64,000 bases of DNA from Leucoraja ocellata. Lineage: Eukaryota. The stretch spans positions 8,742,001 to 8,806,000 of the forward strand of contig JAWMAR010000025.1 of NCBI GenBank assembly GCA_036785375.1. The letters run 5' to 3'. The notes beneath the pieces were generated by a model. It did not search any database. It saw only the letters and a list, made by a program, of their open reading frames with translations, and was not told the origin of the DNA. The position numbers were made by a program, and so were the translations under genes. Positions 4,661 to 57,865 of the stretch are shown here, in pieces; position 1 is the first letter of the stretch; every line of letters starts with the position of its first letter.

Positions 4661-5146
4661 ATGACAACAGAAATTAGCTTGAGTGCTGCCACAGGAAATC
4701 CACAGCAGCCAAGTTCTGAACAAGAGCCTCCCAAGTTTGACAAACCGGAAAGTCAGCCAAAGGAGAATCAGCAGTTGGAAGAGGTGGTGGACAAGCAAGC
4801 GGGTGGAGACCAGAACACGCCAACAACACCAGTCAATGGTATTCCAACCAACAAAGAGGAGGCAGCGAAGGAGCAGTCATCCGGTAGCAAAGGCTTGTCT
4901 CGTTTCTTGCCTGGCTGGTTTAAAAGACCCAAGTCTCAGATTTCAGAAGAGGAAAGTGGAAAGGAGGTTGGTGTTGCTTCTGAACCCAGCAACGCAATAC
5001 CAGAGCAACCACTAGATTCGATAAAGCAAACAGAAGAAGGCGAATTAGTTGAGCAAGGAGCACCTATCGCAGATCAGGAGCTGGATGATAACATTGACGA
5101 AGAAGCAACATTAGATTTGCATTCTGTTAGCAGTGCTGAAACTCAG
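4661..5146 (+). CDS. EPB41: EPB41 exon 2 (AUG1; U1 headpiece), 162 codons
   Basis: ttttaag|GCTCATC ATG ACA ACA GAA; encodes GLSRFLPGWFKRPKSQISEEE and LDLHSVSSAETQ; donor CAG|gtaatt at 5147, phase 0. Confidence 0.93.
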
Positions 5147-25255: not shown

Positions 25256-25879
25256 TTCATTAAGACAAAACATGATTTTCGAATGAAAGGAACTGTAAAT
25301 GGTATATTTGTGCTAACCATGTGTGCATGTAAAATGGTAAAGTGTACACATTCTCTCCAGCCAAACGTAAGCTTCCAAAAACTTGCATTGAATTACCAGT
25401 GGACGAGGATCCTGAGCACAGATGCATTGAAGCACCCAAAGAGCAGCCAGGTACTGGTTTGTTGGCTTGAAGCTCTGTGGTGCTCCTGTTAATTCATCCT
25501 ATCCTTCTCAACAAGAAATTGGTTGCACTCGCCATCTGAAGTTCTTCTGTTGATGTAGTAATTTTTTTTTCTAAACATGATGATTAGAACTTAAACTGGA
25601 GATAAATTATTATTTTTAACCACTCGCTTTGGTGCTGTGAAAGATTTTGCAATCAAGTAAACACAAAGTGTGGATTAAATAGTCATCCAAATCAAATGCT
25701 CTTATAAGAATGATTTATCAATAGCAGCTGTTTTCTTCAATACAAGGTAATGAGTACTTTTGTGGTAGTTTTGAATGATTAACAAAGCATTTGACATAAT
25801 AAATGTGCATGCTTAAATTTGTGCTGGTTTCTAAAATGCATAGTAATTACTTTTGTAGTTTTGAATGAATGGCAAAGCT

Positions 25880-29124: not shown

Positions 29125-29184
29125 GCCCCTGCGCAGCAAACTGAAACCACTCCAATTCCTACCACAGCAAATGATAAATTACAG
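29125..29184 (+). CDS. EPB41: EPB41 cassette exon 14 homologue
   Basis: acctag|APAQQTETTPIPTTANDKLQ|gtttgt; 60 nt, phase 0/0; position and sequence resemble mammalian exon 14. Confidence 0.75.
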
Positions 29185-29299
29185 GTTTGTTTCCGAATTG
29201 GAATGAAAACCAGTTCAAGTATTAGATCATTTTAAATTTTTTGGAAGTCATGAGGACATGGCTCACTAAATTTCATCTCTTTCCACAACATTTATACAG

Positions 29300-29338
29300 C
29301 AAAAGCCTGAAGGAGAAGAAGTCGTTAAAATGCGCAAG
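29300..29338 (+). CDS. EPB41: EPB41 cassette exon 15 homologue
   Basis: atacag|QKPEGEEVVKMRK|gttagc; 39 nt, phase 0/0; ends in MRK like mammalian exon 15. Confidence 0.82.
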
Positions 29339-33592: not shown

Positions 33593-33772
33593 GATCTCGA
33601 CAAAACCCAGGATGAAATAATGAAGCATCATGCTAGTATCAGTGAACTAAAGCGGAACTTTATGGAGTCTGTACCTGAACCTCGCCCCAGTGAATGGGAT
33701 AAACGCCTCTCGGCACACTCGCCTTTTAGGACCACGAATGTCAACGGACCAATTCAAGCCGGCACAGAAGAA
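33593..33772 (+). CDS. EPB41: EPB41 exon 17 (SAB core)
   Basis: taatag|DLDKTQDEIMKHHASISELKRNFMESVPEPRPSEWDKRLSAHSPFRTTNVNGPIQAGTEE|gtaagt; 180 nt. Confidence 0.96.
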
Positions 33773-34565: not shown

Positions 34566-36053
34566 TTGAGAATTGACTAGAGGCAGGAATATGTTGAAAC
34601 ACCAATCAGTCATGATCTCAGTAAATGGTACAGTAGGCCAGTGGCTGTAGAGTTCCTGATCATACAACAAACTTTTTGCAGAGGTTTGGAAAACAAATTT
34701 CATAGTTCAGGAGCAAAACGAGACAGGCTGAACTTGAGGTGAAAACTGCCGGAGTTAGAAATGGAAATAATTTCCACAGCTGCCTCTAGAAGCTCTTATC
34801 TAAAGTGCCTGCCACCATAGCTATATCACATTTAATCCGGCCAAAAAATGTATCCATCTTTCTTACTTGACCAGTTTTAATGTATTTATAATGAAAACAC
34901 ATACAGGCTTCCCTCAATTCATAAATCCAAAAATTCGCTCTCTTTGAATTTATGTGGGGGAAAAAAAAGTAGGTAAATGTAATTTTTTTTTTTCAATTCT
35001 GGTTTCTTGACGCATGTGCAGATAACAAGACTTTGATTTTATGGAGAATCACGATATTGATTGTTTTCTAGGAGTGCAACCCTCTCCCCTCTCCCAATAT
35101 AACGCAGTGGCCACCTGTATTCTCGCAGGTCCTTTAATGGCATGTATATTTTTATATAAATTCTTAAGATAAACAAAATGCTGGTGTGATACAAATTCCT
35201 GTTTGATGTATTTCCAAGTTATTTTAAATCGAACTTTGAATTCCAAGAAATGTTCAAATCTCAGTGCTTGTAAGTCAGCTTACATTGCATATCTTGTTTT
35301 TTAACCTCTCGAGTGAGGGGCCTGCAGTAACAAATGATCTTGTTAAATTGATTCAAATGGGATTAAGATATTACATCAGTGATTAATTAGAACTGAGTGG
35401 TGCTTGAAAGAATGGATGGTAATAAAAATCGAGGTCCTTATACAATCTTGTTGAACGTTTAACCTTTTAAGATATTCTTTTGTGTAGCTTGTTCCACATT
35501 TACACCCGTAATATTTACAATGTTTGAAATCTTATCCTTTACCAGTTTGAAATATGCTTTTAATTCGTATGTATCTGCTCAGAAATTGGATTGGTTATTG
35601 TTTTATTTTGGCACAGTGTGATCCAAAGCAAGAGTAAATCATGTTAATGATCGTTTTCAGGTTAAAATTCTGTCAATTGCTAAATCGATGTGGGCACTTC
35701 CAGTAGCACAATCAATGTTTTCCATTATCAGACGTGCACCAATGATGTGCAGCATATGTTTTAACTGCTTGGAAGTCCCAGGTCCAGAAAACAGCCATCA
35801 TTGAATTATCACTGGGGGAAAAAAAAATGCAGAGCACAATGTGTTGCGTTCTTCATTTATTTGCCATTTAAAGAGTCACTCTGCTGACATCAGGACAATT
35901 TGCAAGGCTGGAGGCAGTCCAAGGTGCTCCTCTGTGTTCGCATAAAGAGATTGTTGGAAAAGGTAACTCGGGAGAAAATTTACATCTATGATCATCCTGT
36001 TTGCAGGCAACACAAGGATCAGACTAGCTGTGGCAGGCAATGTAGGAACCCAG

Positions 36054-36149
36054 GGTTACACAGAAAAGCTGGAGAAACTCAGCGGGTGCAGCAGCATCTA
36101 TGGAGCGAAGGAAATAGGCAACGTTTCGGGCCGAAACCCTTCTTCAGAC
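36054..36149 (-). mobile_element. Penelope-like short repeat with intact minimal hammerhead core
   Basis: Minus strand GT-CTGAAGA-A-GGGT-TTCG-GCCC-GAAA-CG-TT; 95 nt identical to 61732-61826. Confidence 0.7.
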
Positions 36150-36942
36150 AAACATGTAGGAACCCAACTGACTCTCAGTGAGGGGGTATAAAAATGCACA
36201 ATGGTTAAGACGCGTCTTCTGTGCAGCCTCCCTCTTTCCCCTCGGTATCTTGTGTGCAAGTCATGCTTGGTTGTCTGGGGATAGTGCCTTTACTGCTGCT
36301 GATATTTTCTGAGAGTTTGCAAGGCAAAGTGTTAACTAACGTTACTCCTTTTTGGACCCACTAGTCACAATTGAATGTATTCTGAATCAGAAACCAGGCC
36401 CACACAGTTATGTGCTTGTTCTTAACACATTTTCCATTCTCTTTGTGGGAGGACCTGATTTGGAACTAGAACTTCATGCAGTGATCTTTCACCAAGAGTG
36501 TTTTCCTTTAATCATTTGAAAGCCTAATCCGATAAAATGTTTTGAAAAGGCTTGCCTGCTTAGAAACCAACCCAAAAAAGATCCTGTAACTTTTGCTGCC
36601 GTCATCATTATTCAGGAAATCCCATAGTAACTAATCTCTTATTTCCTGAGTATGGCTTCTTTCACTTTGGCTGCAGTTGAAAATTAACTAGATTTGTTCA
36701 TCTCAGGAATTGCTTTTTGAGTGAAAATCGCCGCAAGATAAAAAGGAGCAATAACAGAGCATTATTAATTAGGTTGAATTTATTTTGTAATTTATTCATT
36801 TAATCCGTTGTTTAAAATATCTACAACCATTGTAAGCTGTGACGTAGACATTTCGTAACTATCTAAATTCCAAAATTCATGCCAAAATAACAATTGGTGT
36901 GATGTAATTATTTTCTGATTTAAGATCATTGACCACATAATA

Positions 36943-37333
36943 CATAGACATAGAAACATAGAAAATAGGTGCAGGAGTAGGCCATTCGGCCCTTCGAGCC
37001 TGCACCGCCATTCAATATGATCATGGCTGATCATCCAATTCAGTATCCTGTACCTGCCTTCTCTCCATATCCCCTGATTCCTTTAGCCACAAGGGCCACA
37101 TCTAACTCCCTCTTAAATATAGCCAATGAACTGGCCTCAACTACATTCTGTGGCAGAGAATTCCAGAGATTCACCCGTAATATTTACAATGTGTAAAAAA
37201 ATGTTTTTCTCATCTCGGTCCTAAAAGATTTCCCCTTTATCCTTAAACTGTGACCCCTTGTTCTGGACTTCCCCAACATCGGGAACAATCTTCCTGCATC
37301 TAGCCTGTCCAACCCCTTAAGAATTTTGTAAGA
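36943..37333 (-). mobile_element. Young CR1-type LINE 3' end
   Basis: Close reverse complement of 57290-57666; (CATAGAAA)n tail. Confidence 0.88.
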
Positions 37334-37599
37334 ATTTAAGAACATGCAGAACAGTGGTGCAGGTAATAGAGTTGCTACTTCGCAGCTCCACCTCTGGTGC
37401 CTCTACCATTTGCATTTTCCCTCCTTGATTTCCTTAGTGTGTTATACTTTCTTAGCGCATTCCAAAGACGTGCAGGTTGTTCGGTCACTATAAATTGTAC
37501 TTTAGTAAATTAATCTGGGGTGGGTGAGGGCAGTTGATGGGAAGGTGGATGTTTCCATGCTGTATAACTGACATTTGATGTAGATAAGGACATAAATAT

Positions 37600-39350: not shown

Positions 39351-39521
39351 GCTGCTTATAACTTGGTAGTTTCCTCTGTTAGATTTAAGAAACTAATCTT
39401 GGATTTGTCTTTTAATTGGGTGTATGATAAGTAACCCATCTCTTTGTTGCTGCTAAAGCAAAAGTACATGTGGTAATTGTATCTTATAGTATCTAAAACT
39501 AATAACTTTATCCACGTACAG

Positions 39522-39572
39522 GCCATGGTAATTTCAGGATTGCATCCTGAAAAGAAGCTTGGTGGGCCAGAG
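39522..39572 (+). CDS. EPB41: EPB41 exon 17A homologue (muscle-type cassette, 17 aa)
   Basis: gtacag|AMVISGLHPEKKLGGPE|gtaaag; 51 nt, phase 0/0; same length and ...GGPE ending as mammalian 17A. Confidence 0.85.
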
Positions 39573-40126
39573 GTAAAGTGGTTACAATTGTCCTATGAAT
39601 GCTGATATTTTATTTGCTCAAGCAGATCCCATCAGCGCTGAGTTCTATTTTAGTTGCTAGACAAGAGACATCAGTTTTTCTATTCTTGCAGTTCCAAAAA
39701 CTAACTCTGAAGATTTCCCAATGCTACAGCTTTATGAATGCCTATTAAACAGTGCATGGCTGGTTAAAGGTTGCATGAAGTAATGACCATACTTTTTCCA
39801 AAATAAAAGCTACCAAAATGCAAGTGAATGCAAGTGTTTATAATATTTTACATTTTATTCTTGTTTTTCCTTTCCTCCTTTTTTTTCTAAAATGTCACTC
39901 TTGCTATCATTTTTTTTTTTTCAATTTTGAAGATCAAATTTAAATATCCACCTAGGAAAATCCCCGAAACCCAAGTCTTCACCACATTCTTTTGATATTT
40001 TTCCCTCATTTGCCACCTTTGTTCTATTTTCTCTTTGCACACCTTTTCTTTAAATTTCATACTTACTTTCCCATCTTGCATTTGTTCAATTCTTTTCTTT
40101 CTCTTGGTCTCCTGTCATAAAAGCAG

Positions 40127-40378
40127 ACAAAGAAAATGCCTCTGTTAGTACAGGAAGAAGATGAGGTAAAAGAAGAGCAGGAAACCACAGGGACTGCGCT
40201 TGCACAAGAAAGCAATGAAGACACTTCTCAAAAGGTTTCCATTCAGATGCCTGATGACAAAAGTAAAACAAAACCTTGTCACCCCTATTCAATTGCACTT
40301 CATCGCCCTGGTGTTTCCTTCATAATGTCACTCCTAATAATATTTGTGATGGCAGTCTGGTGGCTTATCTTTATATGA
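40127..40378 (+). CDS. Candidate extra EPB41 exon: cassette (ending 40165 or 40234) or terminal exon ending in a hydrophobic tail
   Basis: About 145-nt AG-free pyrimidine tract, then AAG CAG acceptor; phase-0 open frame, acidic (EEDEVKEEQE); reads to TGA at 40376-40378. Confidence 0.6.
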   Translation, partial: TKKMPLLVQEEDEVKEEQETTGTALAQESNEDTSQKVSIQMPDDKSKTKPCHPYSIALHRPGVSFIMSLLIIFVMAVWWLIFI

Positions 40379-42519
40379 CCAAGAAATGGTGCTGTAGCTG
40401 AAACCTTTCAAAACTTGTTCTTTTTTGAGCTGTACTTTTTTAAAATTCTACATTGTTCTGAAATTCCTCTCTTTTTAACAAAATCCTTGTCCAAATTGTT
40501 TTTCTTGTTTGTCATTTACTAAACTGTACTGACATGTTTATTTCTGTTACGCTGAATTGAATGAAATCATCAATGTTCTCCTCTCTTTCCTGTGAAGATA
40601 TCTATTTGTGTTTGTGCTATGGGATGCCATGTCATTTGTAACCAGTTTCAATACAACATTAATGAAGATGTTGCCATTTACATTTCACACTTTAAATCCC
40701 TTTCAAAGGTGGATTTAACCAAACTCTTGTTACTGAAGTAAAATAATTTGAAAGGTGGCACTCACATTTTCTGTATTTCTTTAAGAAATACAGCCAATTT
40801 TGAATGTTTTTCTTTGATCTGGTTTTAAAATTGACACTTATCTACTGGTGCTATGCTGTGAACCAATGATTGTATATTAAAAATGTCTATAGCAAAGTAT
40901 AATATTTAGCATTAATGGCAGAAAGATACTACTTTCAGCTTCAGTTAATTAAGGACAGGTGAACTGCAAAAATATTCTAACATCTCTATCTAGAATGTTG
41001 TATTTAAGGACAGAATAGTTGATAAATTACTATATTAGTATTTGCAGCACATCAATATTTCAAAAATACTACAGTTTCCATTAGGAATAAAGATAGTATT
41101 AAGACATATTCAAATTTAAAACAAAATTTTAATTGCAAGAGTTTACATTTAATTGTGAGTGGATAGCCAAGTGCACTAAGACAGATACAGTAAGAGTATT
41201 ATTCAGTCAGGTGTAAATTTTCTTATGCTTTTAAGTAAAGGAGTTCACGATTAAAGCAGTTTAATTTTGTTATAAAGTTTGCTGTGCATTTCGTGGTAAA
41301 CCCAAGAAAATGTAATGAGACCTCAGTTGCCATTTTAGATTGATGAATCGCCAGGGCCTATTTTTTTCTTTTTCTGGCATACCTCAAGTTTGTACTCTAG
41401 GCAGAAGAAATCAGTCTAAAACTCTTTGTGTGTGTCATGTGTGGCAAGTTTGTTTCAGGTATATAATATGTACACAGAGACCAGTAGTCACGTGCAATGA
41501 TTAAACAGCGTGCAAGACCCATGGTGTATATCTAATATAGCCATTGCCTTGATCTTCATATGATCATTGTTATTAGGCATAAGTATTATTGTGAGAGGAG
41601 CTTTGTGTGTATGGACGAGACTACCTGCATACGGCCTGTGTAAGTTGCCTCTTGACATGCAGAAAATGTCTAAGCTAGGATGTTGTTTCTGCCTGCAAGT
41701 ATAAAGCTATGATACATGCACCATGATATCAGCAATTTGATGCTTTTGTGAATTAGCATAACATGGGTAATGGCATGCCTGAGGAATTCAAGGCTATATT
41801 TATGTTCATTTATCCAAATGATTTAGCCTTGGTATGAGATCAGTGTTTGCTACTATCAAGGTCAAGTGCATAACAAGTCCTGAATAAAATGAAAAGGAGA
41901 CTGATCTTTTACCACAGTTATCAGAGTTTTTTGGACAAAATTTGAATTAATATGTAGGCTTATATAATGTTGAAATTATTACAAATGAAAGAATAGAACT
42001 ATCGGGAATCTAGATAGATTTTAAAAAGCAAGAAGGGCCAGAAAAAATGGTGAATAGAATTTTGTTTAATGTATGGGCAATTAATTTTCTATTAATAGAA
42101 AAAAATGTGCCTTGGTTGCATTCATCAGCACTTCTAGGAATTTCAAAATATATTAGAACCATGTTCTGTAAGAGTTCAGGAAAACAATGCCAGAAATTAG
42201 AAATCATAGTTTTGAGGGAAAAGGTTAAATTGATTTGTTTTTTTCATCTGAAAAAATTAAGTTAAAATTAAATCTTAAGTTATACAAAGTTATTATTTCT
42301 ATTTTGTTGGAAAATTGGTAAAGGGTGAATATAGAATCAAGATTAAAGTTGGGAGGTTGTTAAAAGAATATATGTCCAACTGGAATCTTGTTTCAGCAAA
42401 AGATTTTTCCTTTGTAAAATGTAGGAGGATTTTGTGCAAAGTAGGCAATGGATTAAAGGTATGTAATTGAGGAACTTGGAGCTGTACAACTTAGAAAAAT
42501 ACCTGCTGAATCTCTTAAA

Positions 42520-43015
42520 CTCAGTTCAGTTTCATTTATTGTCAAATGTACCGAGGTACAGTGAAAAGCCTTTGTGTGTGAACTAGTCAGCGGAAAGACA
42601 ATGCGTGATTACAATCGAGCCATTCACAGTGTGCAGATACATGATAAGGCATAACGTTTTGTGCAAGATAAAGTCAGCAAAGTCCAATCAAAGATAGTCC
42701 GAGCGGCAGATAGTAGTTTAAGATTGCTCTCTAGTTTTGGTAGGATGGTTCAGTTTCCTGATAACAGCTGGGAAGAAACTGTCCCTGAACCTGGAGGTGT
42801 GCATTTTCACACTTCTATATATTTGTCCCCATGGGAGAAGAGGGAGTGGCCAGGGTGCGACTCGTCTTTGCCATGGCAGCGTGAGGTGTAAATGGAGTCA
42901 AATGGAAGGGAGGTTAGTTTGTGTGATGGTCTGGGCAGCATCCACAATTTGCTGATATTTCTTGTGGTCGTGGATGGAGTTGTTCCCAAACCAAGCTGCG
43001 ATGTTTCCCGATAAA
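42520..43015 (-). mobile_element. Rex1/Babar-like LINE 3' fragment
   Basis: tttattgtca tail; ataacagctgggaagaaactgtcc (minus: DSFFPAVI); IYTSRC motif. Confidence 0.7.
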
Positions 43016-45564
43016 TTGTAAATTCTACCAGTCAATCAATAGCTTGCATTTTCCTCCTCTAAGTAATACAAAGTGAAATTCCAGGAAAAGGGCTGCAAAT
43101 TTGTAATAGGATTATTCCAAAAGTATTTAGTGATAATGTAAATGCCTAATGGTTCGTATGAAATCTGTTTGGCTCTTATAGAATGTCAAGTGTATTGTCA
43201 TCTTGTTTATTCACTTTTTAGGGTCTGCGCACGTTAACCACATTTGATTTTTTTTTTTCTATTGCAAATCTCAAATTGTGGAGTTCAGAGGCAAATAAAT
43301 AAATAAATGATGGGTCTTTGTCCCAAACATTATGGAGGGCACTGTCCCTCATCATATTTTTTCCTTATCTTTGTCTGCATCAGTCAAAATGATATATACA
43401 GTTAAATAAGTGTTGTAGAACACAACCAGATCACAAATTGGACATAATAATAGAACTAAAAGATAAGACGTAATAAATTAAACAAAAGGCCTGTCAGTTA
43501 AAAATCCAACATGCTCGAGTTCCTCTATTCCTTTGCAATGATAAACTGTCCATATTATTTCAGCAGCATCACAGAATTCTTAGAAATGGAGAGAAAATAA
43601 ATCTACCCTTCCAATACACAGTTCAATTACATCCTGCCATGATAATTTTTCACTTGGATCCATGCTTAAACTTTTTCTTGGATGAGATGGGAGAGAAACC
43701 TAAACAGAGGGGTTAATTATTTATAAAACCCACAACCGTCAACAAAACATACGAGTGCAGTAAGCCAGTATAACATTTCTTCTAATAAGCAAAATGAAGC
43801 TAAGAAAGGAAATAATCTATAATTGTGGCAATATTCTTACAGCAATATTGTAGTGAAGTAGCACTAGTTTATGTACTTCAGCCTTTTAATTGAAGTCACA
43901 GAAGTTGCTCTTCCTGCTAAGCACCTACAAGTCGATCAAAAGTGAAGATACCATTTTACTCCGTAGCAGCAGTAACTGCAAATATTATGGTACTTGATTT
44001 TGGAAATATCTTGTGCAAGATGATGGATTAGAATTTGTTACTTGAAACTAAATGGTTGATATTAATATAGCTTACATAAATAGCATCTGTAAGAAGAGGC
44101 ACAAATTTGGGATAGCTTTGTCTTCAAATGTCGAACTGATGTGCCAAAGGTAAATGTATGTAGCATCTAAACAAATAGCATGTAAATAATATGTAAAACA
44201 GAGTAAGTTATCTTAAAAGAACCCAGCTGATAAGTTCACATCAGCAGTCATTGAAGTTTGGTCAGATTATTGGAAGTCCCAAGTCGGTAGAATTGGGTGT
44301 GCAATGTTCAGGATGGAAACTGGAAGCTCTCTGATGATACTCGTCTGCAGAAAAGTTATTCAAATAAAGGTGTTCCTTTGGACTTTCACGTTGATGAGCA
44401 GGTGCTTCACAGTTGCATCTCAGGTGGCTGTGAAATACAGATTGCAAATTGAATTGTTGTGAGTGTGGTGGTGTAAAACAGGCAGCTGTGTATAAATATT
44501 TTTAGCTGTTGTAACGTACAGGGCAAGGTTTTTGCACTGGGGTGGGGGAGAGCAATTGGTTTGTGGGGGAAATTATATTAGGAGGCAATCGTGAACTGTA
44601 AAAGCAACGTTTGGAAACAAATTGTAACATTAAACCAGATACTTCAATTGTCAATCTGAAAGAAAATCAAAAGTTCAATCTAAAGTTTAGTTTAATAATT
44701 TATTTTTATACACATAGTTTGAACTTTAACTGAGTATCGTCAGATAGTGTAGATAGCATGTGTTCCTTTAATGAGTTGTAGTGCTTCCTCAAAGTTTGAG
44801 AGAGTTCTGAGTCTAGCTGACAGCATTGTAAAATGATAAGACATTAAAAACTTCCAATTTTTTTTAATGAAGTTATCTTCATTGTAAATTAGATTGATTT
44901 AAAAATTCCATTTGGTATAACTTGTTGTTTTTGCTTACCTGATGAAATCAAATGATAAATACAGAGTAACTGTAAATTGTACTGAGGCGATGATCTAGAT
45001 GTGAATAATTGAGGTTACCACAGTGGAATTCTTCCCTCAAGTAGTTCCTGCAAACAACTTTCCAGAATCTATCAAATTGATTTAAATCATTGGCAGTACA
45101 TATTATCTCTCAGAACAAGAACTAAATATAATGAACCCTTGCAGTAGAACTTTGTATATTCCTGAATCTCTCTTGTACATGTGTAAGGAAAATAAACACG
45201 TTGTTAAAACTAGATCTGCCGACTTATTGTTTTATTTTGAACTGTGCTAATAGATCAGCACTTTGCTTTCTAATTGGCTTTGTTGCATGTTAACCATAAT
45301 GCATTACAGAAATTTATTAAAATTGGCAAACCAATATATTGAGAGAATAATGTAAATACTTTAACGAATTGTGTGATTCAAATGACCTCAACCGTCAGAA
45401 AATCTACAGATTTCCTAGGATTATGTGTTGTGTAATCACTATAATTTAGGACATGATGAGATTAGAGTTGGTATTTTATTTTGCAAATGGAAGTTTAGTC
45501 AATTTTATGCTTTTATTTTAAGACTAATCCAAAAATTGGTTGTAAGGAAATTGAATAGAAAGTA

Positions 45565-45624: not shown

Positions 45625-46516
45625 TATTAAAAAATCAACAAGGGATTTGGACTTAATATAAACTACCAGTGAATTGTGAAGTTTGAATACGTCAAATATT
45701 TTCTAATTTTAATGAATATTCTATTTATTGTGTTCATTTGCCTTATTATGTTCGGGTGTTTTGTGGTTAGTTGAGGATTGTACAGTCGGCAAGCATCTGC
45801 ACATTAGTTAAGATGATTGCAATTTGATATTGAGTTACTCAAACCTTGTTCTTTAAACTGAAGGGTGCGATGATATGAATGCTTTATCGAAAAGAGATGC
45901 AATGTGTATATAGCCCTGTTTCCGAAGATGGTCTACACTTAAAATAAATAATTATGTTGGATTAAAGAAATTTGAGGTGCACAGAAAATATGGTAGTAAG
46001 CCTTCCTGATTACAATTTTATTAATTTTAACTTGTACACAACCAGATTGACAAAGCAAAGTTGGTAATAGCTGCAGTGTAGGAAATGGAGGGCAGTACAT
46101 GCAACGGAGGACACAGAAGGCTGCAGTTCACATTTTGAATGTGAAAGAGCTTTGTCTTTGTGTTGTTGGCCAATGAATTATTATTTTAAAGACACTTTAA
46201 ACTGCAGATGCCGGAATCTTGAGCAAACAAAAAAAATGTGCTGGAGGAACACAGTGGGTCAGGCAGCATATGTGGAGGGAAATGGACAGACATTTTGTGT
46301 CGGTACCCTCCTTCAGTCTGAAACGTCGTCTGTCTGTTGTCGTCCATAGATGCTGCCTGTGCAGCATCTGTGTTTGTTAAGCACTTTTTCTTTAAACCAT
46401 TACTTTGTTTAGTAGTTCCTATTGTAAAATGAATGCTTATTCATGATATAAAAATCAAAAAAGTGACTTTGGAGATTGAAAGCTAGGTTTTAGAAAAAGG
46501 GGATTAGTGTAGTTAA

Positions 46517-46615
46517 AGTCTGAAGAAGGGTCTCGACCCGAAAAGTCACCCATTCTTTCTCTCCAGAGATGCTGCCTGGCCTGCTGAGTTACTCCAGCAT
46601 TTTGTGTCTATCTTT
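46517..46615 (+). mobile_element. Penelope-like short repeat, sense orientation, hammerhead core with altered stem III
   Basis: CTGAAGA-A-GGGT-CTCG-ACCC-GAAA-AG-TC, then agatgctgcc...gctgagttactccagcattttgtgtcta. Related degenerate copies at about 1710-1972, 3700-3790, 13370-13555, 22392-22545, 24685-24775, 26595-26650, 28328-28536, 46198-46378, 53615-53790 and 56650-56757. Confidence 0.7.
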
Positions 46616-49600
46616 AATATAGTGAAAGACCTATATTAAATGAGATTTAATAATTTAATTAAAAATGGCACACTAAACAAATTGTGTTTTTGTTTACATG
46701 TGTATGCTTGTTCATTCCTGATTACGATTTTGCGTTTTACTGTACTTGTTACCCTGGAATGGTGCACATACAGTAGTTAACTTGAATCTTTAAGCTCTGA
46801 ATAATGTGATCACATTCTCTAATGAAGAATTTGTTAATGCCAATTATCAAAGCCAAATTAGTTTTGAGAGTATTTATTTTGAATATTCTTTGTGTTGCTA
46901 ATAATGTCAAGCCAACTTTTGCAATAGCCAGTTTAGTTCCATAGAAATTGGTTGCCATGGATATGAACCTTAGATCTGCCAAAGTCCGCTGCAGCATTAA
47001 AATCTAAACTATGGATTGTTGTTTTGATTATTTTAACTTTTAATTTTGGTCAAGTTTGCCAACATTAAATGCATTAAATATTGATGTTGCTCTTATAATA
47101 ATACTTTGGAAGACTTTACATTAAACTTTGGCCCATTTACAACGAGACATATTGTCAAGTTTCAGAGCATTTGTGTATAATGTAAAACAAGTTCTATAAT
47201 GTGTGAGCATGATTAAAAGCTTTTCTCATACAATCCTTATTTACTTTGCATTAGGATGCATTGAATACAACTTTTTTGCACTCAGCTGCAACGTGTTAAA
47301 TTATTTACTATCTTTCTTGCAATAAAATGTTGCTGATATTTTGATCCTGGTTGTGCTAAAAAGGCTCTGCTGCCAAACATCATTCTGGTTCAAAAACTAA
47401 TGCAAAATTATGATCTGCTATCTTATGTTGGCCATATTTGCTTGTACTTCAAATTCGCTTGTTACTGTAAAGGATAAGCTCAAAATAGTTTATCTTAAAA
47501 ATTGTTCATGAAGTAGGATTTATCCCTGCTCCTAATTAAAACCTTATTTAAACTTAGGAACATTTCATGAATAAAATTAACAGTTTCATTCTGAAATTTC
47601 CTTAGTGTCTAAAAGTATTTTACAATATAACAGTACCTGGACCATCTACAATGATCTTTTTGGAAGTGAAATTGAATTTGGTTTCCTGGACCCCTGATTT
47701 CACATGATCAATGTTGACCCCCCCCCCCCGGACACTTATTTTCAAATCGTTTGCTATGCCGCTGTTCAAGGGAGATGCTAAATGCATTTCGTTGTCTCTG
47801 TACTGTACACTGACAATGACAATTAAATTGAATCTGAATCTGAATTATGTATGGGGTTGGAGACTGTTTTAGTCTACAAATCAGGTCTGTAATTCATATT
47901 GCGTATTTATTGTTCAGTATATAACATTTATTACTAACATTTATTAAAATCACATGATTATGGAATTGACGAGGTAGAAATCTGCTGTCTCCCCTTGCTC
48001 CTGTGATATAGTAATGTGTGCATTGTTCTGCACATTAGAAGTTGATGGTCAGTAAATTTTGGAACCCCAGTGCTTGAGAGCATTGGTTTTGTAGCTTCTG
48101 CAAATGGCGCTCATATCTTGTGGCACTAATGGTGATTCAGACTGAAGAGGTGCAACATTCTTGCCGTGACTTTTAATAATTAAAACATTGAAGAGAAAGA
48201 AGGAGGTTGTTTGTGTTGTATAAGGAATGTCCAGATTGCATTGCTAATGTGAATGGCATCTTGTTGATTAAGTTAATTGTCTTTGTGGTTGGTCTTCCTT
48301 TTTTGGACAAAAGGTGAGTTTCATCACCATTCTACTTAATGATATCTAATTAAGCACTTGAGTCATTCCTACTCTGTACATTCACTGTGTTGCACAACCA
48401 ACAGGTGAAACTACAATAGTTACTGGTGAGTGAATCGTAATACTATGCGCAACGCAGTTTACTTTTTATTTTGATGGCTTTCCCTGACACATTGCTTATT
48501 TGTATCTGTTATAGCTAATGATTCGTGTTTGCTTGGAATGGACAAATATCCTTGTCTTGACCTACTTAGGCAGCTCTTCTACATTGTTTAAATTTTACTT
48601 ATTCATTAACTTGTGGAAAACTGTATGGCAAAGTTTTCGTTGGCAGCGTGAACTTCTATGCAAATGCATTTTACTGAATTTTTAATGGTAGATTAGATTG
48701 CGGTTCACTATCATTTTAAAATTTAGTTTGGGATTTGGCAATATTATGTTAGGAGTACAATTTAAAGTAACTGTGGTCTGGAGCAGTTACTCTAGGGCAT
48801 CAGATAACCTCTGTTTCCTTTCACCATCAGATTTTAGTGGGGCAAGAAATGGCACGTAGTTACTTTAGCAAAACTGCAGTCTACGTAGGTCAAGGAAGAG
48901 CCTCTAATTTGCTTTGGTACAATTTATTTTCCTTTCCCACTGAATTTAAACAAAATGACAAAGTAATGTCATGCGGCATCACCTTTTGCTTGTTTTCTGC
49001 TGACCAAATAGCTGGTGCACACGCTAATCTTATTTTGAGGCCTTTACTTTGGTTGAAGCATTTATAATTGTTTACAAGATCGACGAAGAACTTATTCCAA
49101 GAGGGGTTAAAATACTTGTGAAAAATGGAGGGTGTCCATCTGAATGATGAATTCATGGAACATTGTGGCTCTTTGGTAATACTTTGGAAGACTTTTACAT
49201 TAAACTTTGGCCCAAAACCCACTGTCCAAGTTCTGAGCATCTGTGTATAATGTAAAACAAGTTTATTTTCCAGGCCAAAATAATGTCATAATGTCATAAT
49301 CACTTTTCTTGACCTGTTGGATGAGAGATTTTGTACAGCTGGTCTGAGCAGATGCAACCCTTTTAAATTATATCTAAGACACAGCACTATATTGGGAACA
49401 AGAAAGGCCTAGGTGAACGCGAGGCAAAAAAATAATTGCTGTAAGCTGTTATACACACATTTTTAAAAGTAGGAAATTAATAATTTTTAAAATTCACAAA
49501 CTATCTTTTACCCTCTGTTAATAGTATAATATTGTGAAATCTACAATTTAAGGTATTTAATTCATCAAATATTAGCTTTACAGTTGTTATTTATATATTT

Positions 49601-51106: not shown

Positions 51107-51268
51107 AAATTAATAGAAGGCCTATATGGACATTTGCGTGCCAATGAAAAGCCAGCAGTATTCCAGGCAACCTGCTTCTTTTATGCAACACCAGAAAAGA
51201 CTGCCAGGGAAGGACAAGTGCAGACTCCAAATAAAACTGCTTTGCCTTCCTCTATTTTTCATGCTCAG
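51107..51268 (+). CDS. Candidate extra EPB41 cassette exon (54 aa)
   Basis: Strong CT-rich tract 51040-51095, gtctag| acceptor, open phase-0 frame KLIEGLYGHLRANEKPAVF...SSIFHAQ, weak donor CAG|gtgcta. Confidence 0.4.
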
Positions 51269-52444
51269 GTGCTATATATATATGTTTTATTCTCAACTTA
51301 CTTGTTCTACTTGTATTCATAAACACAATTTATTTTATAAGGGCATATGCTTTCACACTTTTTTTAAAAGCTGGTCAATCTTTAAGCTAAAAAATGTAAA
51401 TGAGATCTTCTCCCCTCTGCAAAATGTTCAAATCTAGGCTAGACTCCACTTTCCGCACCAACACAATGTGAAATAATATACAAGATTTATTTTCCTAAAG
51501 ACCAAAATTAGTTCATGTTTATCAAATACTACTACCATTTAACCCAGAGATATGTTTTTAGCACGTGGACATCAAATTGCAGCATTCATGTTCTTGTTGC
51601 TTGCATTGGATTTTTGCCAGTAATGTAGCTGAGGGTATGTTTCCTCTTTGGCCATGTGCCCACTAAGTTCTACCCACATAGTATAAATTTTCAAAAATGC
51701 AGTGACTTTTACAGTGCAAAACTGAGCAACTTTTTACTCCAGCAGTCCTTTATAAAATAGAGACATTTTAATGTGTTAATTCTTTTGATATTTACTGCGA
51801 GGTCTTGCACTTAATGCTACTTTCAATTTACTTTTATTAGATTGAATCTTCACTCATGATTAGCACCAGAATCTGGACACAACTTGTGAAGATAAAATTG
51901 GGATGGAGGAAGGGTTTATCCAAACACGTTGATTGATAGCTTGATTTTTATGCCAATTGATATTAATTAGGTTTTATAAGTTGATGAAAGAAAATGTGCT
52001 ATTATTTGTTGGAGGTATTTTTCCAATGAATGTTTCATCTGTGAAGGGTACTATTGATATTGGAACAAATTATGCCAAGACTGAAACCTCTTATAAGATA
52101 TCACTGAGCCTTGCTATAATATTACTTACCCATAAAAATGCTATTATAGAACGGCATGGAGCGTATTTTCCCCTTTATAAATTAGACAAAATTGCTAATG
52201 TTTTTACGTTAATTATTCCTTAAATTTCATTAAATTAAAGGTTTTAGTGTTGCCTCATTGCAAAAGCACGGGCAATATTTGAATCCAAATTGTAATCAGT
52301 CCTTCATTTACACAACATGAGTCTCCTCATTGTAGCCAGAACATTTTTTTAAATGCAAGGTTGCCAACTTGATATTTAATTTCAACTACAACTCTGCTTA
52401 ATAATAATTTTCTTTAGGCCTTACATTTGCCCGTTTTCTTATAG

Positions 52445-52858
52445 AATATGGATGACGACCTGAAATCAAAATTTGAAGAGCTGTCAGAGTGTGTAAAGAT
52501 TGATCACAAGGCAGAAATAGAGGGACTGAAGCTTGAAAATGGCTTCAGCATGAGCCAAGTGACTGGCCCGTTGGAGTCTCCACTGAGACATGACTCTGAC
52601 CCTTCCTTTCTGAGTAACAGCAAGGAGGAGGAAGAATTCTGCCTCCTTCAGAACAAGGAGCTGAAGTGGCAGAGCAGGGCAGATATAGGCCTGGACATGC
52701 AGCCTGAGGTTTCAGAGGAGATTGAAGCAAAGGCCCTCATGAGCTCTGCTTCTCCTCAACTAAACCACCATCTGCAGGAAGGTGAACAGAAAGAACGACC
52801 TTTAAAGATAAATGCCTTTCATTACAATGAACCTCCTCGGCTAATCCGCTGCTTTCAG
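52445..52858 (+). CDS. EPB41: EPB41 exon 17B homologue (138 aa, acidic U3)
   Basis: ttatag|NMDDDLKSKFEELSECVK...LENG...PPRLIRCFQ|gtaaaa; 414 nt, phase 0/0; large acidic exon just before exon 18, as for mammalian 17B. Confidence 0.82.
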
Positions 52859-54315
52859 GTAAAACTGAAATCAGGAAACCACTGGGTCTTTTCAACTTCC
52901 ATCAAACGGATTTGCTTTCCACCATTAAAGCAAGGCACTGCAGCATGTTGATTTAACATTAACCTCCAAGTGAATCTGACTAATTTTAGCTACCTTCAAA
53001 ATGCAATTTGCTTTCTATATCGATTTTACGGAAAGCAAAGGGCTTCTTGGTGTTTACTTGCTTCAGTGTTGATGGTTTCTGGACATGGGAAATGTCGGTA
53101 AAGTACTTGTCAATCCAATTTGGAAACTGCAACAAATATTGCCTTTTGCCTGATCTCTGTCCTCTCTAAACTCTGACCAGTTCTGATACTAATGTTGGCT
53201 TTTGCACGGTGATTTATTAATGGTGGTTATAAATGGTGGCAGTTATGATGATTAACACTTCATTTATCCAAGTAAAAGAGCTATCAAAGATTGATCCTCA
53301 TCTCATGAATGTCAGTGGGCAGCAGTATCTGACACAACTGATTTGTAGGCCATGCATTTTTTTTCAATTTGTTCAAGTTTAACTGTACGGTATCATTGGC
53401 TTTGGCCAGAGTTGAACTATAAGAAGATTGTTCCCACAGGTTGTGCAATGTGGTGATTACACTGCATTGCCAGCAGTTAATGAATGAAAAACAAATTTGT
53501 GTTTTCATGTTTACCTTCAGTTTTATTTCCTCACGAACCTTGCTTGGACAACTTAATACAACAGCTACTATTAAATTGCTCCTAAAAAAAAAACCCCCAT
53601 AAATATTGAATGTCAAAAATATGCAGATGCTGGAAATCTGAAATGAAAACGAAGTGCTGGAAACACTCACCAAATCAGCAGGCATACTGTGGAAACTGGT
53701 GGGGCTATTGGCCTGAGATGCTGGCTCTGTTTCTCTCTCCACAGAATGCTGTCTCACCTGCTGAGTGATCCCAGCAATTTCTGGTTTTATTAATATTGAA
53801 CAATATAATTGATGCACCCTTTGGAATCTTGTCACTTGGGTTTGTTAAATGTACTTATTCATGAATACTTACACATATCACTAGCATCTGATTTTTTTTT
53901 TTTTTACATTTGGAGAGATAAGCGCTGACAGTTATTGATACCAATGGTAAAATTAAAGGCCTGTGTCAGAAATGCTCCTTTGACATGAATATTGCAGTTT
54001 GTGTTGGGGGATTGCTGTGTAAAGCCTGAACTGACTTCAATGGCAAAATAAAATGCAGGCTGCATTAATAAGTCAATTTGGATTCAATCACAGCATTAAT
54101 TACTGCTGTTTTGTGTTACTGCTGGACAATCCCTAAGTTATTTTAGGTATGCAGTGAAAGAAGATTTGGAAGAGCTCCCACTGTTGTGCTCTACAATACT
54201 GATGCAGCACTGATATTTGTTATGTCATTGGTAAAAGTTGCTTACTGTGGCCAGTTATATAATCTCCTTTGGGGAAAACTCAGCAAATCTGACTTTCTTT
54301 TTCCACTTGGAACAG

Positions 54316-54441
54316 CCGCCACTTGTGAAGACTCAAACTGTGACCATCCCTGACGTGCCACCCTCTGAAAATGAAATTGCTACCAATGAAGTTCCTGTTG
54401 TTCACACAGAAACAAAGACCATCACCTATGAAGCAGCACAG
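54316..54441 (+). CDS. EPB41: EPB41 exon 18 (CTD)
   Basis: gaacag|PPLVKTQTVTIPDVPPSENEIATNEVPVVHTETKTITYEAAQ|gtttgt; 126 nt. Confidence 0.95.
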
Positions 54442-54774
54442 GTTTGTAATTATTCTGAGATAAATTTGCTTTGTCGCAGCTTGAGCATTCGATTAGAATT
54501 TTGTGGCACCTCTTGGGGAAGGCGTCACCACACAAAGCTTATTCAGTGAACGGGTTGAGCCTTACAACTTGGGGAAGCTCTCAGGTCTGATCTTGCCGTC
54601 TTTGCTATTTATTAATGTCAAGCAGCTGGTTTTAATGCCTCTGGGTTAAAGTGTTAAAATTTGGTCACAGTTCTGTTTGTCTTCACCAGTAAATTATTTG
54701 TATCGGATTGTGATTCTGTGGTCTTAAATTGAGGACTTTGTATTTTGGGGACATTGTGACCTCAAATACCTGCT

Positions 54775-54879
54775 ACCAAGATGCAGGACAGAACGCCACA
54801 GGAGATCCTTCTTCCCTGTGGCTATCAAACTGTGCAACTCCTCCCCCTTCTGTCGTGGGATAGACTGAGACTTCCTTCT

Positions 54880-54914
<35 letters not shown>

Positions 54915-55036
54915 CTTTGCACATCCCCAATCCTTTTTACTCCTCACTTTAATTTCCTGTCTCATGTATTTTTGTGTTTTCATGACTGTTGGCAGATCAA
55001 TTTCCCTCCTGGGATAAATAAAGTTCTATCGTATCG
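54775..55036 (+). mobile_element. Rex1/Babar-like LINE 3' end with 8-bp TSD
   Basis: RCRTERHRRSFFPVAIKLCN C-terminus; tail gggataaataaagttctatcgtatcg; TACCTGCT at 54767-54774 and 55037-55044; internal poly-C. Confidence 0.8.
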
Positions 55037-55991
55037 TACCTGCTTGCATTACTCTTACCGATATGGCATATAATAAGGGTGTGGGTAACTAGCAAATACC
55101 ATGGATTGCAGGAGAGCAAGGGACATTTATTTTAATTTACCTCTGAATGTGCCATTCTGTAGGATTCAACTCCATGAAAGCCCCACATAGAATATTAAGA
55201 ACTGTGACATGTTGCATTATGTACACCAACTTTTCAGTTCAACTGCCTGACATTTTATTGTGTGTTACTGGGCCTGTAAAGCTACAGCAAGAAATAATTT
55301 CATTATTCCGTTGCTTGTACATATGACAATTAAACTGTCTTAACTTGATTCCCTTGACATTTTGAGGAGTAAAAGCTTTCCTCCCACAAAACTAATTAAT
55401 TGACATAGTATTGGAGACTTGTCACTGTTTAACTTTTAGTTATGTCACCTGTTCAATTTCTGTAATCTTAAATTGGTTTTTTGAGTGTTTTAGATGGGAT
55501 CTGTTGGCTCTAGAATAACATTGCCTGCAAAGTCAGCTAATATAATGCACAATTGGCCAGCCACACATCTTTCACAATCCATAAACTTGAGTTTGTTCTT
55601 AATTCAGTTGCCAGTATCCTAACAAATGCCAAATCCTGTTTATTCTTCACTGCTATGCTTTTTGGCCTTCATATCCACCAGCCCCTCAGTATTACAATCC
55701 CCATCCTGGTTTTCAGATCCTTTTTATAGACAGCTCTCCCTCCACAGCTCTGCAATCCTTTCCAGTATTAAAACTTTGAGAACTTGGTGTTCTTCCAGTT
55801 GTGGCCTATGTGCCCGCTGTCTCCTATCGAGCAGAGGCAGCTAGGCGTTAAACATCTGGGCCCAAAGCTCTGAAATGTATTTCTTAAATCCCACTGCCTG
55901 CTTTCTTCTTGTGCTGGTTATAAATGGCCATTAAACTACTGAACACCCATTTTAATAAATCTCCATTCTGGTTTGTTGTAATTTGGTGCAG

Positions 55992-56093
55992 ACAGGTGAT
56001 TGTAATAGTGATGGTGAGCCTGGGGTATTGATGTCTGCTCAAACTATCACAGCTGAGACTGTGTCCACCACCACAACCACACAGATCACAAAG
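55992..56093 (+). CDS. EPB41: EPB41 exon 19 (CTD)
   Basis: gtgcag|TGDCNSDGEPGVLMSAQTITAETVSTTTTTQITK|gtaagg; 102 nt. Confidence 0.95.
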
Positions 56094-56371
56094 GTAAGGG
56101 TAACGTATCCAAATTCCGAAAGATTTCCATTGAATATTTTGCTGATTCAAAAATGGTGCATGTAACTTTTCTAATATAATACATTTATAAGATGAATGAA
56201 TTTACAATGTGTAAAAAGATGCGCAGTGGTATTTGTCAATGTTGTTTCCCAGTCAGTTATAGGAAGTATTCGGTAATGACACCAGTGAGTGTACACATCC
56301 CAGTTAGTTTTACATCACTATATTCAATGCAGTAACATTTATAATGTGCTTTCATTTTTTTTTTGTTCCAG

Positions 56372-56452
56372 ACTATTAAAGGAGGAATTTCAGAAACCAG
56401 AATTGAGAAACGAATTGTAATCACAGGAGATGCAAATGTTGACCATGATCAG
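56372..56452 (+). CDS. EPB41: EPB41 exon 20 (CTD)
   Basis: ttccag|[27 protein letters not shown]|gtgaaa; 81 nt. Confidence 0.96.
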
Positions 56453-57226
56453 GTGAAAACCCTTTTTTTTTTTTTTTCCTGTGCCGTGAGTTGATAGATT
56501 ATATTTATAAAACTATGTTTTGGATAAAGATATCAATCCTCATATGAATGCAAATAGTATTTATCTCTCAATTAATAGTGCTAGTATTTCTCAATACACC
56601 TGGTACTGTCCGCGAGTGATTAGTTTCATAAATAACAAGGTACTTGGATAAACACCAAAGATAGACACAAAATGCTGGAGTAACTCAGAGGGACAGGCAG
56701 CATCTCTGGAGAGATGGAATGGTTGGCGTTTCGGGTCGAGACCCTTTTTCAGACTGACTTAGATAATGTTATTAATTAGTTCCAGAGAATTTTATCACAC
56801 TGAAATGATAAATTATTATCATATTTCTGGACAACATATGCTTTAGCCTGGTCTCTAGTTTTCCGATCGCAAGATTCTTATTGCAACCAGGTGTATGAAA
56901 TTGTTTTTCCCCCCAGCTTTAAGGAGGTCATCCAAGTAAACACTCGGCTTCCTAGGTCCCAGAATTAGTCTCAGTCATGAGATTTCCTAGTATAGAATCA
57001 TGATCCTTGTATCCTGTGGTGCAGGAGGCTGGAGCACAGTATGCAGCACCTGCGACAGCCATTCTACCACTGAAGTCTGATTAGGATGCAATATATTGTC
57101 AGTGTATACCAAGATTGCTCCTTAGTACTTCATTTTTGTTATTCGACAAGTATTTTGGTGGGTTAGCAATCTGCTCTTTTTAGGGAAATATTCCGTTGAC
57201 ACTCTGAAGAAATAGAAAATGACTGG

Positions 57227-57666
57227 ACCAGAAAAAACTGATAGACTCGGCTTGTACTCGCTAGAATTTAGAAGATTGAGGGGGGGGATCTTATAGAAAC
57301 TTACAAAATTCTTAAGGGGTCGGACAGGCTAGATGCAGGAAGATTGTACCCAATGTTGGGGAAGTCGAGAACAAGGGGTCACAGTTCAAGGATAAGGGGG
57401 AAGTCATTTAGGACGGAGATGAGAAAAACATTTTTCACACAGAGAGTGGTGAATCTGTGGAATTCTCTGCCACAGAAGGTAGTTGAGGCCAGTTCATTGG
57501 CTATATTTAAGAGGAAGTTAGATGGGGCCCTTGTAGCTAATGGGATCAGGGGGTATGGAGAGAAGGCAGGTATGGGATACTGAGTTGGATGATCAACCAA
57601 GTTGGATGAGTGGTGGTGCAGGCTCGAAGGGCCGAATGGTCTACTCCACCTATTTTCTATGTTTCT
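57227..57666 (+). mobile_element. Young CR1-type LINE 3' end
   Basis: SRTRGHSSRIRGKSFRTEMRKTFFTQRVVNLWNSLPQKVVEASSLAIFKR plus the conserved tail. Confidence 0.9.
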
Positions 57667-57766
57667 AAAATGTAAAACACGTGTAATTAACAAACTGAAG
57701 TATTCCAAGGAACATATTTGATTAAATATTTGGAGATGTTTTTTTCACATTTGTGTACTTTGGCAG

Positions 57767-57865
57767 GCTTTGGCACAAGCCATCAAAGAAGCCAAAGAGC
57801 AACATCCGGATATGTCTGTGACCAAGGTGGTGGTGCATCAGGAAACAGAGGTGGAGAAGGAATAA
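57767..57865 (+). CDS. EPB41: EPB41 exon 21 (CTD end, stop TAA 57863-57865; exon ends 57872)
   Basis: tggcag|ALAQAIKEAKEQHPDMSVTKVVVHQETEVEKE* then AACCCAG|gtaaag donor. Confidence 0.96.
   Translation, partial: ALAQAIKEAKEQHPDMSVTKVVVHQETEVEKE

Follow-up and report, generated by a model that had tools for sequence, protein, structure and literature searches.

The intron downstream of exon 17 in the protein 4.1R gene (EPB41) of the skate Leucoraja ocellata was found to contain an alternative last exon, which probably yields a tail-anchored FERM-FA-SAB form of 4.1R without the CTD. The exon lies in a window of 64,000 nucleotides (contig JAWMAR010000025.1, positions 8,742,001 to 8,806,000), the whole stretch of DNA that was analysed. 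Predicted models of other species splice a coding exon located 5' of it to its in-frame acceptor. It is a genuine exon that dates back at least to the divergence of cartilaginous and bony vertebrates, which corresponds to a conservation depth of roughly 430-450 million years. Among membrane-skeleton adaptors, 4.1R is the standard case of a protein that attaches to membranes solely through its partners, and an isoform with an anchor of its own would contradict this usual picture.

A tblastn search with nine protein 4.1 isoforms placed coding exons between positions 4661 and 57862 of the + strand, mostly with 94-100% identity to Leucoraja and Amblyraja 'protein 4.1-like' models. The exon 17 peptide retrieved protein 4.1 isoforms with skates on top (best 120 of 7990 matches), and the Pfam domains FERM, FA, SAB and 4_1_CTD were detected in this order on an ordinary isoform (P0001). 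Judged by these comparisons, the gene carried by the window is skate EPB41 (4.1R). Its exon 17 ends in the donor GAA/gtaagt; cassettes of 54 aa (at 51107) and 138 aa (at 52445) follow 3' of exon 17A, and exon 18 and the CTD exons start at 54316. The same contig carries a second copy of the whole EPB41 coding region some 214 kb upstream (8532362-8586565, corresponding to 4650-58100 of the window). Both copies are 97.6-99.4% identical over the 20 kb compared and encode the same terminal-exon peptide. The second copy may be an uncollapsed haplotype or a very recent tandem duplication, and it lends the exon no independent support. Elsewhere in the skate genome no paralogous exon was found by a single-sequence search, which is weak for distant paralogs (beyond the two EPB41 copies, the best match had E 1.8).

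Table. Features of the EPB41 locus relevant to the terminal exon (window coordinates)
Feature	Position	Strand	Basis
EPB41 exon 17, second half of SAB	33593..33772	+	tblastn with skate/ray isoforms, 92-98% identity
Exon 17A, 17 codons, donor GAG/gtaaag	39522..39572	+	tblastn mapping and sequence
Pyrimidine tract without AG over 148 nt, followed by a NAGNAG tandem acceptor	39975..40126	+	sequence
Predicted cytosolic segment of the terminal exon (acidic linker, conserved stretch, basic residues)	40127..40312	+	tail alignment
Predicted transmembrane helix up to the last residue, then TGA	40313..40378	+	hydrophobicity, tail alignment, AlphaFold
Putative 3' UTR containing candidate poly(A) signals	40379..41888	+	motifs only
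Downstream cassettes and CTD exons, skipped by the terminal-exon isoform	51107..57862	+	tblastn, Pfam

The initial annotation, made from the sequence alone, had proposed a phase-0 terminal frame behind a very strong acceptor, 555 nt after exon 17A. All of this was recovered: the frame comprises 83 codons from 40127 and closes with a TGA at 40376-40378, the spacing agrees with the mapping of 17A, and the acceptor is a tandem AAG/CAG/ site (40124 or 40127), with 83% pyrimidines at -30 to -7 and no AG in the preceding tract. Use of 40124 adds one Gln. The in-frame GT donors after 40165 and 40234 exist as well, together with four further phase-0 GTs inside the exon (40147, 40312, 40345 and 40354). 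Downstream, the poly(A) signals ATTAAA at 40876 and AATAAA at 41086 and 41883 were all found, along with two extra candidates (ATTAAA at 41250 and 41500). The AU-richness of this region, remarked on before, has no evidential weight, since its GC content (33.9%) is ordinary for the window (range 32.5-41.1%). The last 21 residues, described before as uninterrupted hydrophobic or aromatic, are indeed uncharged but include two serines. Among the 226 six-frame open reading frames of at least 60 codons in the window, the terminal exon was the only one to end in a 19-mer with a Kyte-Doolittle mean of at least 2.0, reaching 2.83 (mean 0.0, sd 0.78).

The same last exon was found in 111 database isoform models from catshark, stingray, paddlefish, turtles, lizards, birds and mammals, among them primates; the whole of this database support consists of automatic predicted models, some of the mammalian ones possibly projected from one source. 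Conservation of frame, hydrophobicity and stop position in shark, ray and fish loci had been named as a check, and all 111 full-length models terminate at one common residue and are without the CTD. Over the 83-residue exon, identity to skate was 73.5% for catshark, 69.9% for stingray, 50.6% for paddlefish and 37-46% for most amniotes listed. The suggested splicing of exon 17 or 17A to the terminal exon is also modelled, via 17A (in a long or short form) in 109 of the 111 and directly from exon 17 in one paddlefish (P0270) and one owl (P0389) model. Both tandem acceptors are modelled in stingray (isoforms X12 and X13), paddlefish, bat, duck and lizard, and 14 mammalian models use a third acceptor, in frame and eight codons downstream. 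That species far apart are modelled with several donors and acceptors suggests that junction evidence may stand behind the models.

Five of the 276 proteins first gathered end in the exon. These are red stingray (Hemitrygon akajei) X12 (XP_072884557.1) and X13 (XP_072884558.1), which differ by the one Gln that the tandem acceptor can add, small-spotted catshark (Scyliorhinus canicula) X10 (XP_038652208.1), and paddlefish (Polyodon spathula) X11 (XP_041096528.1) and X12 (XP_041096529.1), which differ by the use of 17A versus direct joining to exon 17. Trachypithecus francoisi X29 and Ovis aries X13 are further examples. A phmmer search against 1.84 billion cluster representatives gave 12 matches with E up to 0.001, all of which align with the terminal exon described here, and a profile built from 13 tails matched 127 proteins. 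Among the 120 of these matches listed, 106 were protein 4.1/EPB41 models and 14 were contig open reading frames; mammals were represented by rodents, bats, carnivores, ungulates, porpoise and primates (langur, colobus, gelada, orangutan and two lemurs), and non-mammals by birds, lizards and turtles. No human, amphibian, crocodilian or named teleost protein occurred among these 120 of 127; three diverged matches (P0286-P0288, E 6e-5 to 6e-4) are, as a guess, teleost. The exon was absent from the Leucoraja, Amblyraja and Rhinoraja protein models retrieved, from eight coelacanth models and from the first 120 protein 4.1 isoforms compared. The skate peptide alone had no match as a protein query among cluster representatives sharing exact words, no Pfam family covers the exon, and the ESM Atlas returned no usable match. 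An apparent read-through of the stop in contig open reading frames was discarded: P0289 is the skate peptide followed by Trp and the downstream frame of the window, with TGA translated as Trp by the gene caller. The same translation is inferred for the mammal-like frames, because the named mammalian models terminate at the common stop.

Six of 24 listed sequencing runs (X1, X2, X3, X11, X14 and X21), none recorded as RNA, were compared with the window; none of the six gave a junction read, and the region 39400-42300 was inspected in runs X1, X11, X14 and X21. It was matched by 4 contigs, 10 reads, 2 partial poor matches and 32 reads, respectively (n=48). No splice junction or 3' end was present among these 48 reads and contigs, at a depth of at most 5 and with zero depth over 17A in all four runs. 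The reads of X11 and X21 show no splicing and are scattered across intron, exon and downstream DNA, in the orientation that sense RNA has in most stranded libraries. Two signals considered as splicing evidence were rejected: that of X11 at 39503-40169 turned out to be unspliced reads over the intron and the exon start, and the X1 contig over 40124-40379 has a depth at intron level and contains no joint. The four thin runs neither show nor rule out the terminal-exon isoform in skate. Frameshifts or stops in close relatives had been named as evidence against the exon, and the X1 contig, which comes from a relative, covers 40124-40379 without gap or stop. It carries nine differences in 8 codons, giving 7 amino-acid changes and 1 silent change, with hydrophobic character retained in all four changes that fall in the helix; this ratio speaks mildly against tight constraint and is drawn from one contig at a depth below 5. 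The comparison of reads over 20 kb was swamped by repeats. High-copy repeats of intron 17 at 35900-37400, 42500-43400 and 46200-46620 have very deep read and contig coverage.

The conservation of the tail was assessed on 57 distinct sequences, 56 from the database and the skate tail. In none of the 57 do the last 19 residues include D, E, K, R, N, Q or H. Five helix positions (Phe -19, Ser -16, Trp -6, Trp -5 and Phe -2) are invariant in all 57, as are Ser -46 and Cys -33 upstream of the helix. The basic residues reported ahead of the tail are likewise kept, with a net charge of +2 to +4 at -40 to -21. KD19 values were 2.31-2.72 in the database models, with the skate value above these, and on a translocon scale the tails scored -3.1 to -4.9 versus +2.9 for the best-scoring stretch elsewhere in the catshark protein. 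In an AlphaFold model of the catshark isoform P0245 (47 sequences), residues 842-861 form one helix with a block pLDDT of 77-93, the most confident part of an overall poor model (mean pLDDT 39.8), and such a predicted helix does not prove membrane insertion. P0245 has no second hydrophobic 19-mer. The layout of a tail anchor, as first proposed, is borne out by computation: the one hydrophobic helix falls within the final ~30 residues, and no other membrane segment is predicted. The confident helix and the charge-free, conserved tail together make a tail-anchored FERM-FA-SAB protein likely.

The exon could instead serve to lower the output of the gene, either through a truncated and unstable protein with a hydrophobic degradation signal or as a poison exon whose onward splicing past the stop leads to decay. 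The skate reads, with a depth at intron level and no poly(A) site or 3' end among them, agree with such a role, but a poison exon needs no conserved amino acids, whereas this exon preserves, in sharks and primates alike and in the groups between them, an uncharged tail of 19 residues, seven invariant positions among the final 46 and the exact stop. We regard a role in lowering output as improbable. It is also quite improbable that the tail is a binding helix, lying on a partner, on the FERM domain or on the membrane surface instead of spanning the bilayer. The invariant Phe, Ser, Trp-Trp and Phe go beyond what a plain anchor needs, and nothing follows the helix; yet no polar face remains in a segment free of charged and amide residues in every tail, and its hydrophobicity is far above that of the rest of the protein.

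Separately from the helix, a conserved stretch of the K-V-S-I-x-I type was observed at 40238-40280 of the window, with an invariant Ser and, amid basic residues, an invariant Cys. We take the stretch to be a candidate docking or phosphorylation motif and the Cys a candidate acylation site.

The domain content expected of the tail-anchored isoform was confirmed by Pfam in the three terminal-exon isoforms scanned, all of which have FERM, FA and SAB and lack 4_1_CTD. Exon 16 is included in 96 of 111 terminal-exon models versus 197 of 269 other isoforms; as long-range exon combinations in automatic models are unreliable, we take this as a hint of a full SAB domain in the terminal-exon isoform. The initial annotation had also considered a plain cassette leaving through the donor after 40165 or 40234, in which case the hydrophobic run would be intron. 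Although both in-frame GT donors are present, none of the 155 proteins with a profile match continues into exon 18, so the cassette reading fails; no partial profile match was seen among the remaining 4.1 isoforms, and the most conserved part of the exon lies 3' of both donors. We consider an ordinary cassette highly improbable. A separate microprotein of 80 residues starting from the Met at 40136, or an annotation artefact, is hardly credible: gene callers do predict such a frame on contigs (P0277), but this Met is not kept outside the cartilaginous fishes, while the phase-0 acceptor and the join to 17 or 17A are kept in all groups.

Tail-anchored proteins have a strongly hydrophobic C-terminal helix that is inserted post-translationally into the ER by GET/TRC40 or EMC; they keep their bulk cytosolic and stay in the ER/SR or move to the plasma membrane. 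For the tail-anchored 4.1R, the following sequence of events can be proposed. In some tissues exon 17, mostly through 17A, would splice to the terminal acceptor, and cleavage of the transcript at an intronic poly(A) signal would drop exons 17B-21 and avoid nonsense-mediated decay. By the rules for tail anchors, the protein would insert into the ER with its bulk cytosolic, and would then reside in the ER/SR or at the plasma membrane. The isoform would hold spectrin-actin with no need for glycophorin C, band 3 or a similar partner. It would lose the CTD and with it the binding of NuMA and FKBP13, named as CTD partners of 4.1R in the excerpts of PMC2148212 and PMC10887211; according to the former, NuMA binds exons 20-21. 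A wider proposal is that all jawed vertebrates, including humans, make a so far overlooked integral-membrane 4.1R in the ER/SR of exon-17A tissues as a splicing-controlled tether between ER and plasma membrane that is linked to the membrane skeleton, with FERM contacting plasma-membrane lipids and proteins and SAB contacting spectrin-actin. We hold this wider proposal to be rather unlikely.

The EPB41 isoform models in RefSeq/UniRef (ray, shark, paddlefish, langur and sheep) share the exon, acceptors, stop and domain order with skate. They are automatic and named just 'protein 4.1 isoform', and no paper on them was found. Canonical 4.1R, from the same gene, has the same FERM-FA-SAB core, and the new exon falls into the variable U3 region between SAB and CTD, as far as the sources excerpted describe it. 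Exons 14, 15, 17a/a' and 17b are the tissue-specific ones described in the excerpt of PMC2148212, and the variable exons described for 4.1R comprise 3, 14, 15, 16, 17a/a' and 17b. The excerpt of a 2024 review (PMC10887211) gives four domains plus variable regions and mentions no membrane anchor; its one use of the word 'transmembrane' concerns another matter. In contrast to the tail-anchored isoform, the 4.1R forms described in these excerpts keep the CTD and reach the membrane via FERM binding to membrane proteins or lipids, with no anchor of their own. In the literature searched, which leaves much of the older 4.1R work outside, a membrane-anchored 4.1R is not described. EPB41 does not occur in the excerpted supplementary text of the intronic poly(A) atlas PMC5928244, and the excerpts of PMC9926112, PMC3142162, PMC12946277 and PMC8408529 contain nothing relevant. 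The exon is already part of the automatic annotation of many species and seemingly unstudied, and the term 'undescribed' is provisional.

With regard to other membrane-bound proteins, FRMD5 is a FERM protein with a membrane-spanning segment, and neither FRMD3 (4.1O) nor FRMD5 is known to have a SAB domain. FRMD3 is a single-pass transmembrane protein according to the excerpt of PMC11687992. No FRMD protein was present among the 120 listed of 127 profile matches to the terminal exon; the comparison with FRMD3 and FRMD5 is an analogy, and the anchors were likely gained independently. Junctophilins, phospholamban and syntaxins are tail-anchored, with a helix that ends the chain. Like the 4.1R exon they have one C-terminal hydrophobic helix with basic residues before it and few or none after it. 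The likeness drawn here is one of layout, and the 4.1R anchor, unlike theirs, is optional and chosen by splicing of the last exon.

If the isoform is made as proposed, the view of non-erythroid 4.1R action would be altered, as spectrin-actin could be nucleated on a chosen membrane, and the isoform could not act via the CTD at the spindle or nucleus. Antibodies against the CTD and primers placed in exons 18-21 would fail to detect it. Should the human exon be intact, it would bear on EPB41 variants now classed as intronic. The exon offers a precise and cheap test target, with one junction, one tail and one deletion.

Some related exons were also observed. In 4.1R models of tarpon, paddlefish and hummingbird (P0088, P0095, P0102 and P0273), exon 17 or 17A is followed by another conserved terminal exon, which is non-hydrophobic and has a shared basic, amphipathic-looking end; it was not found in the skate window. 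Bony vertebrates may consequently have two alternative last exons here. The 54-codon cassette (51107-51268) lies between 17A and a 17B-like exon in skate, ray and shark models, has a chimaera counterpart of 52 codons and is likewise preceded by a long AG-free tract (140 nt). Three small exons in the U2 region (25360-25449, 29125-29184 and 29294-29338) are variably included among ray and shark models.
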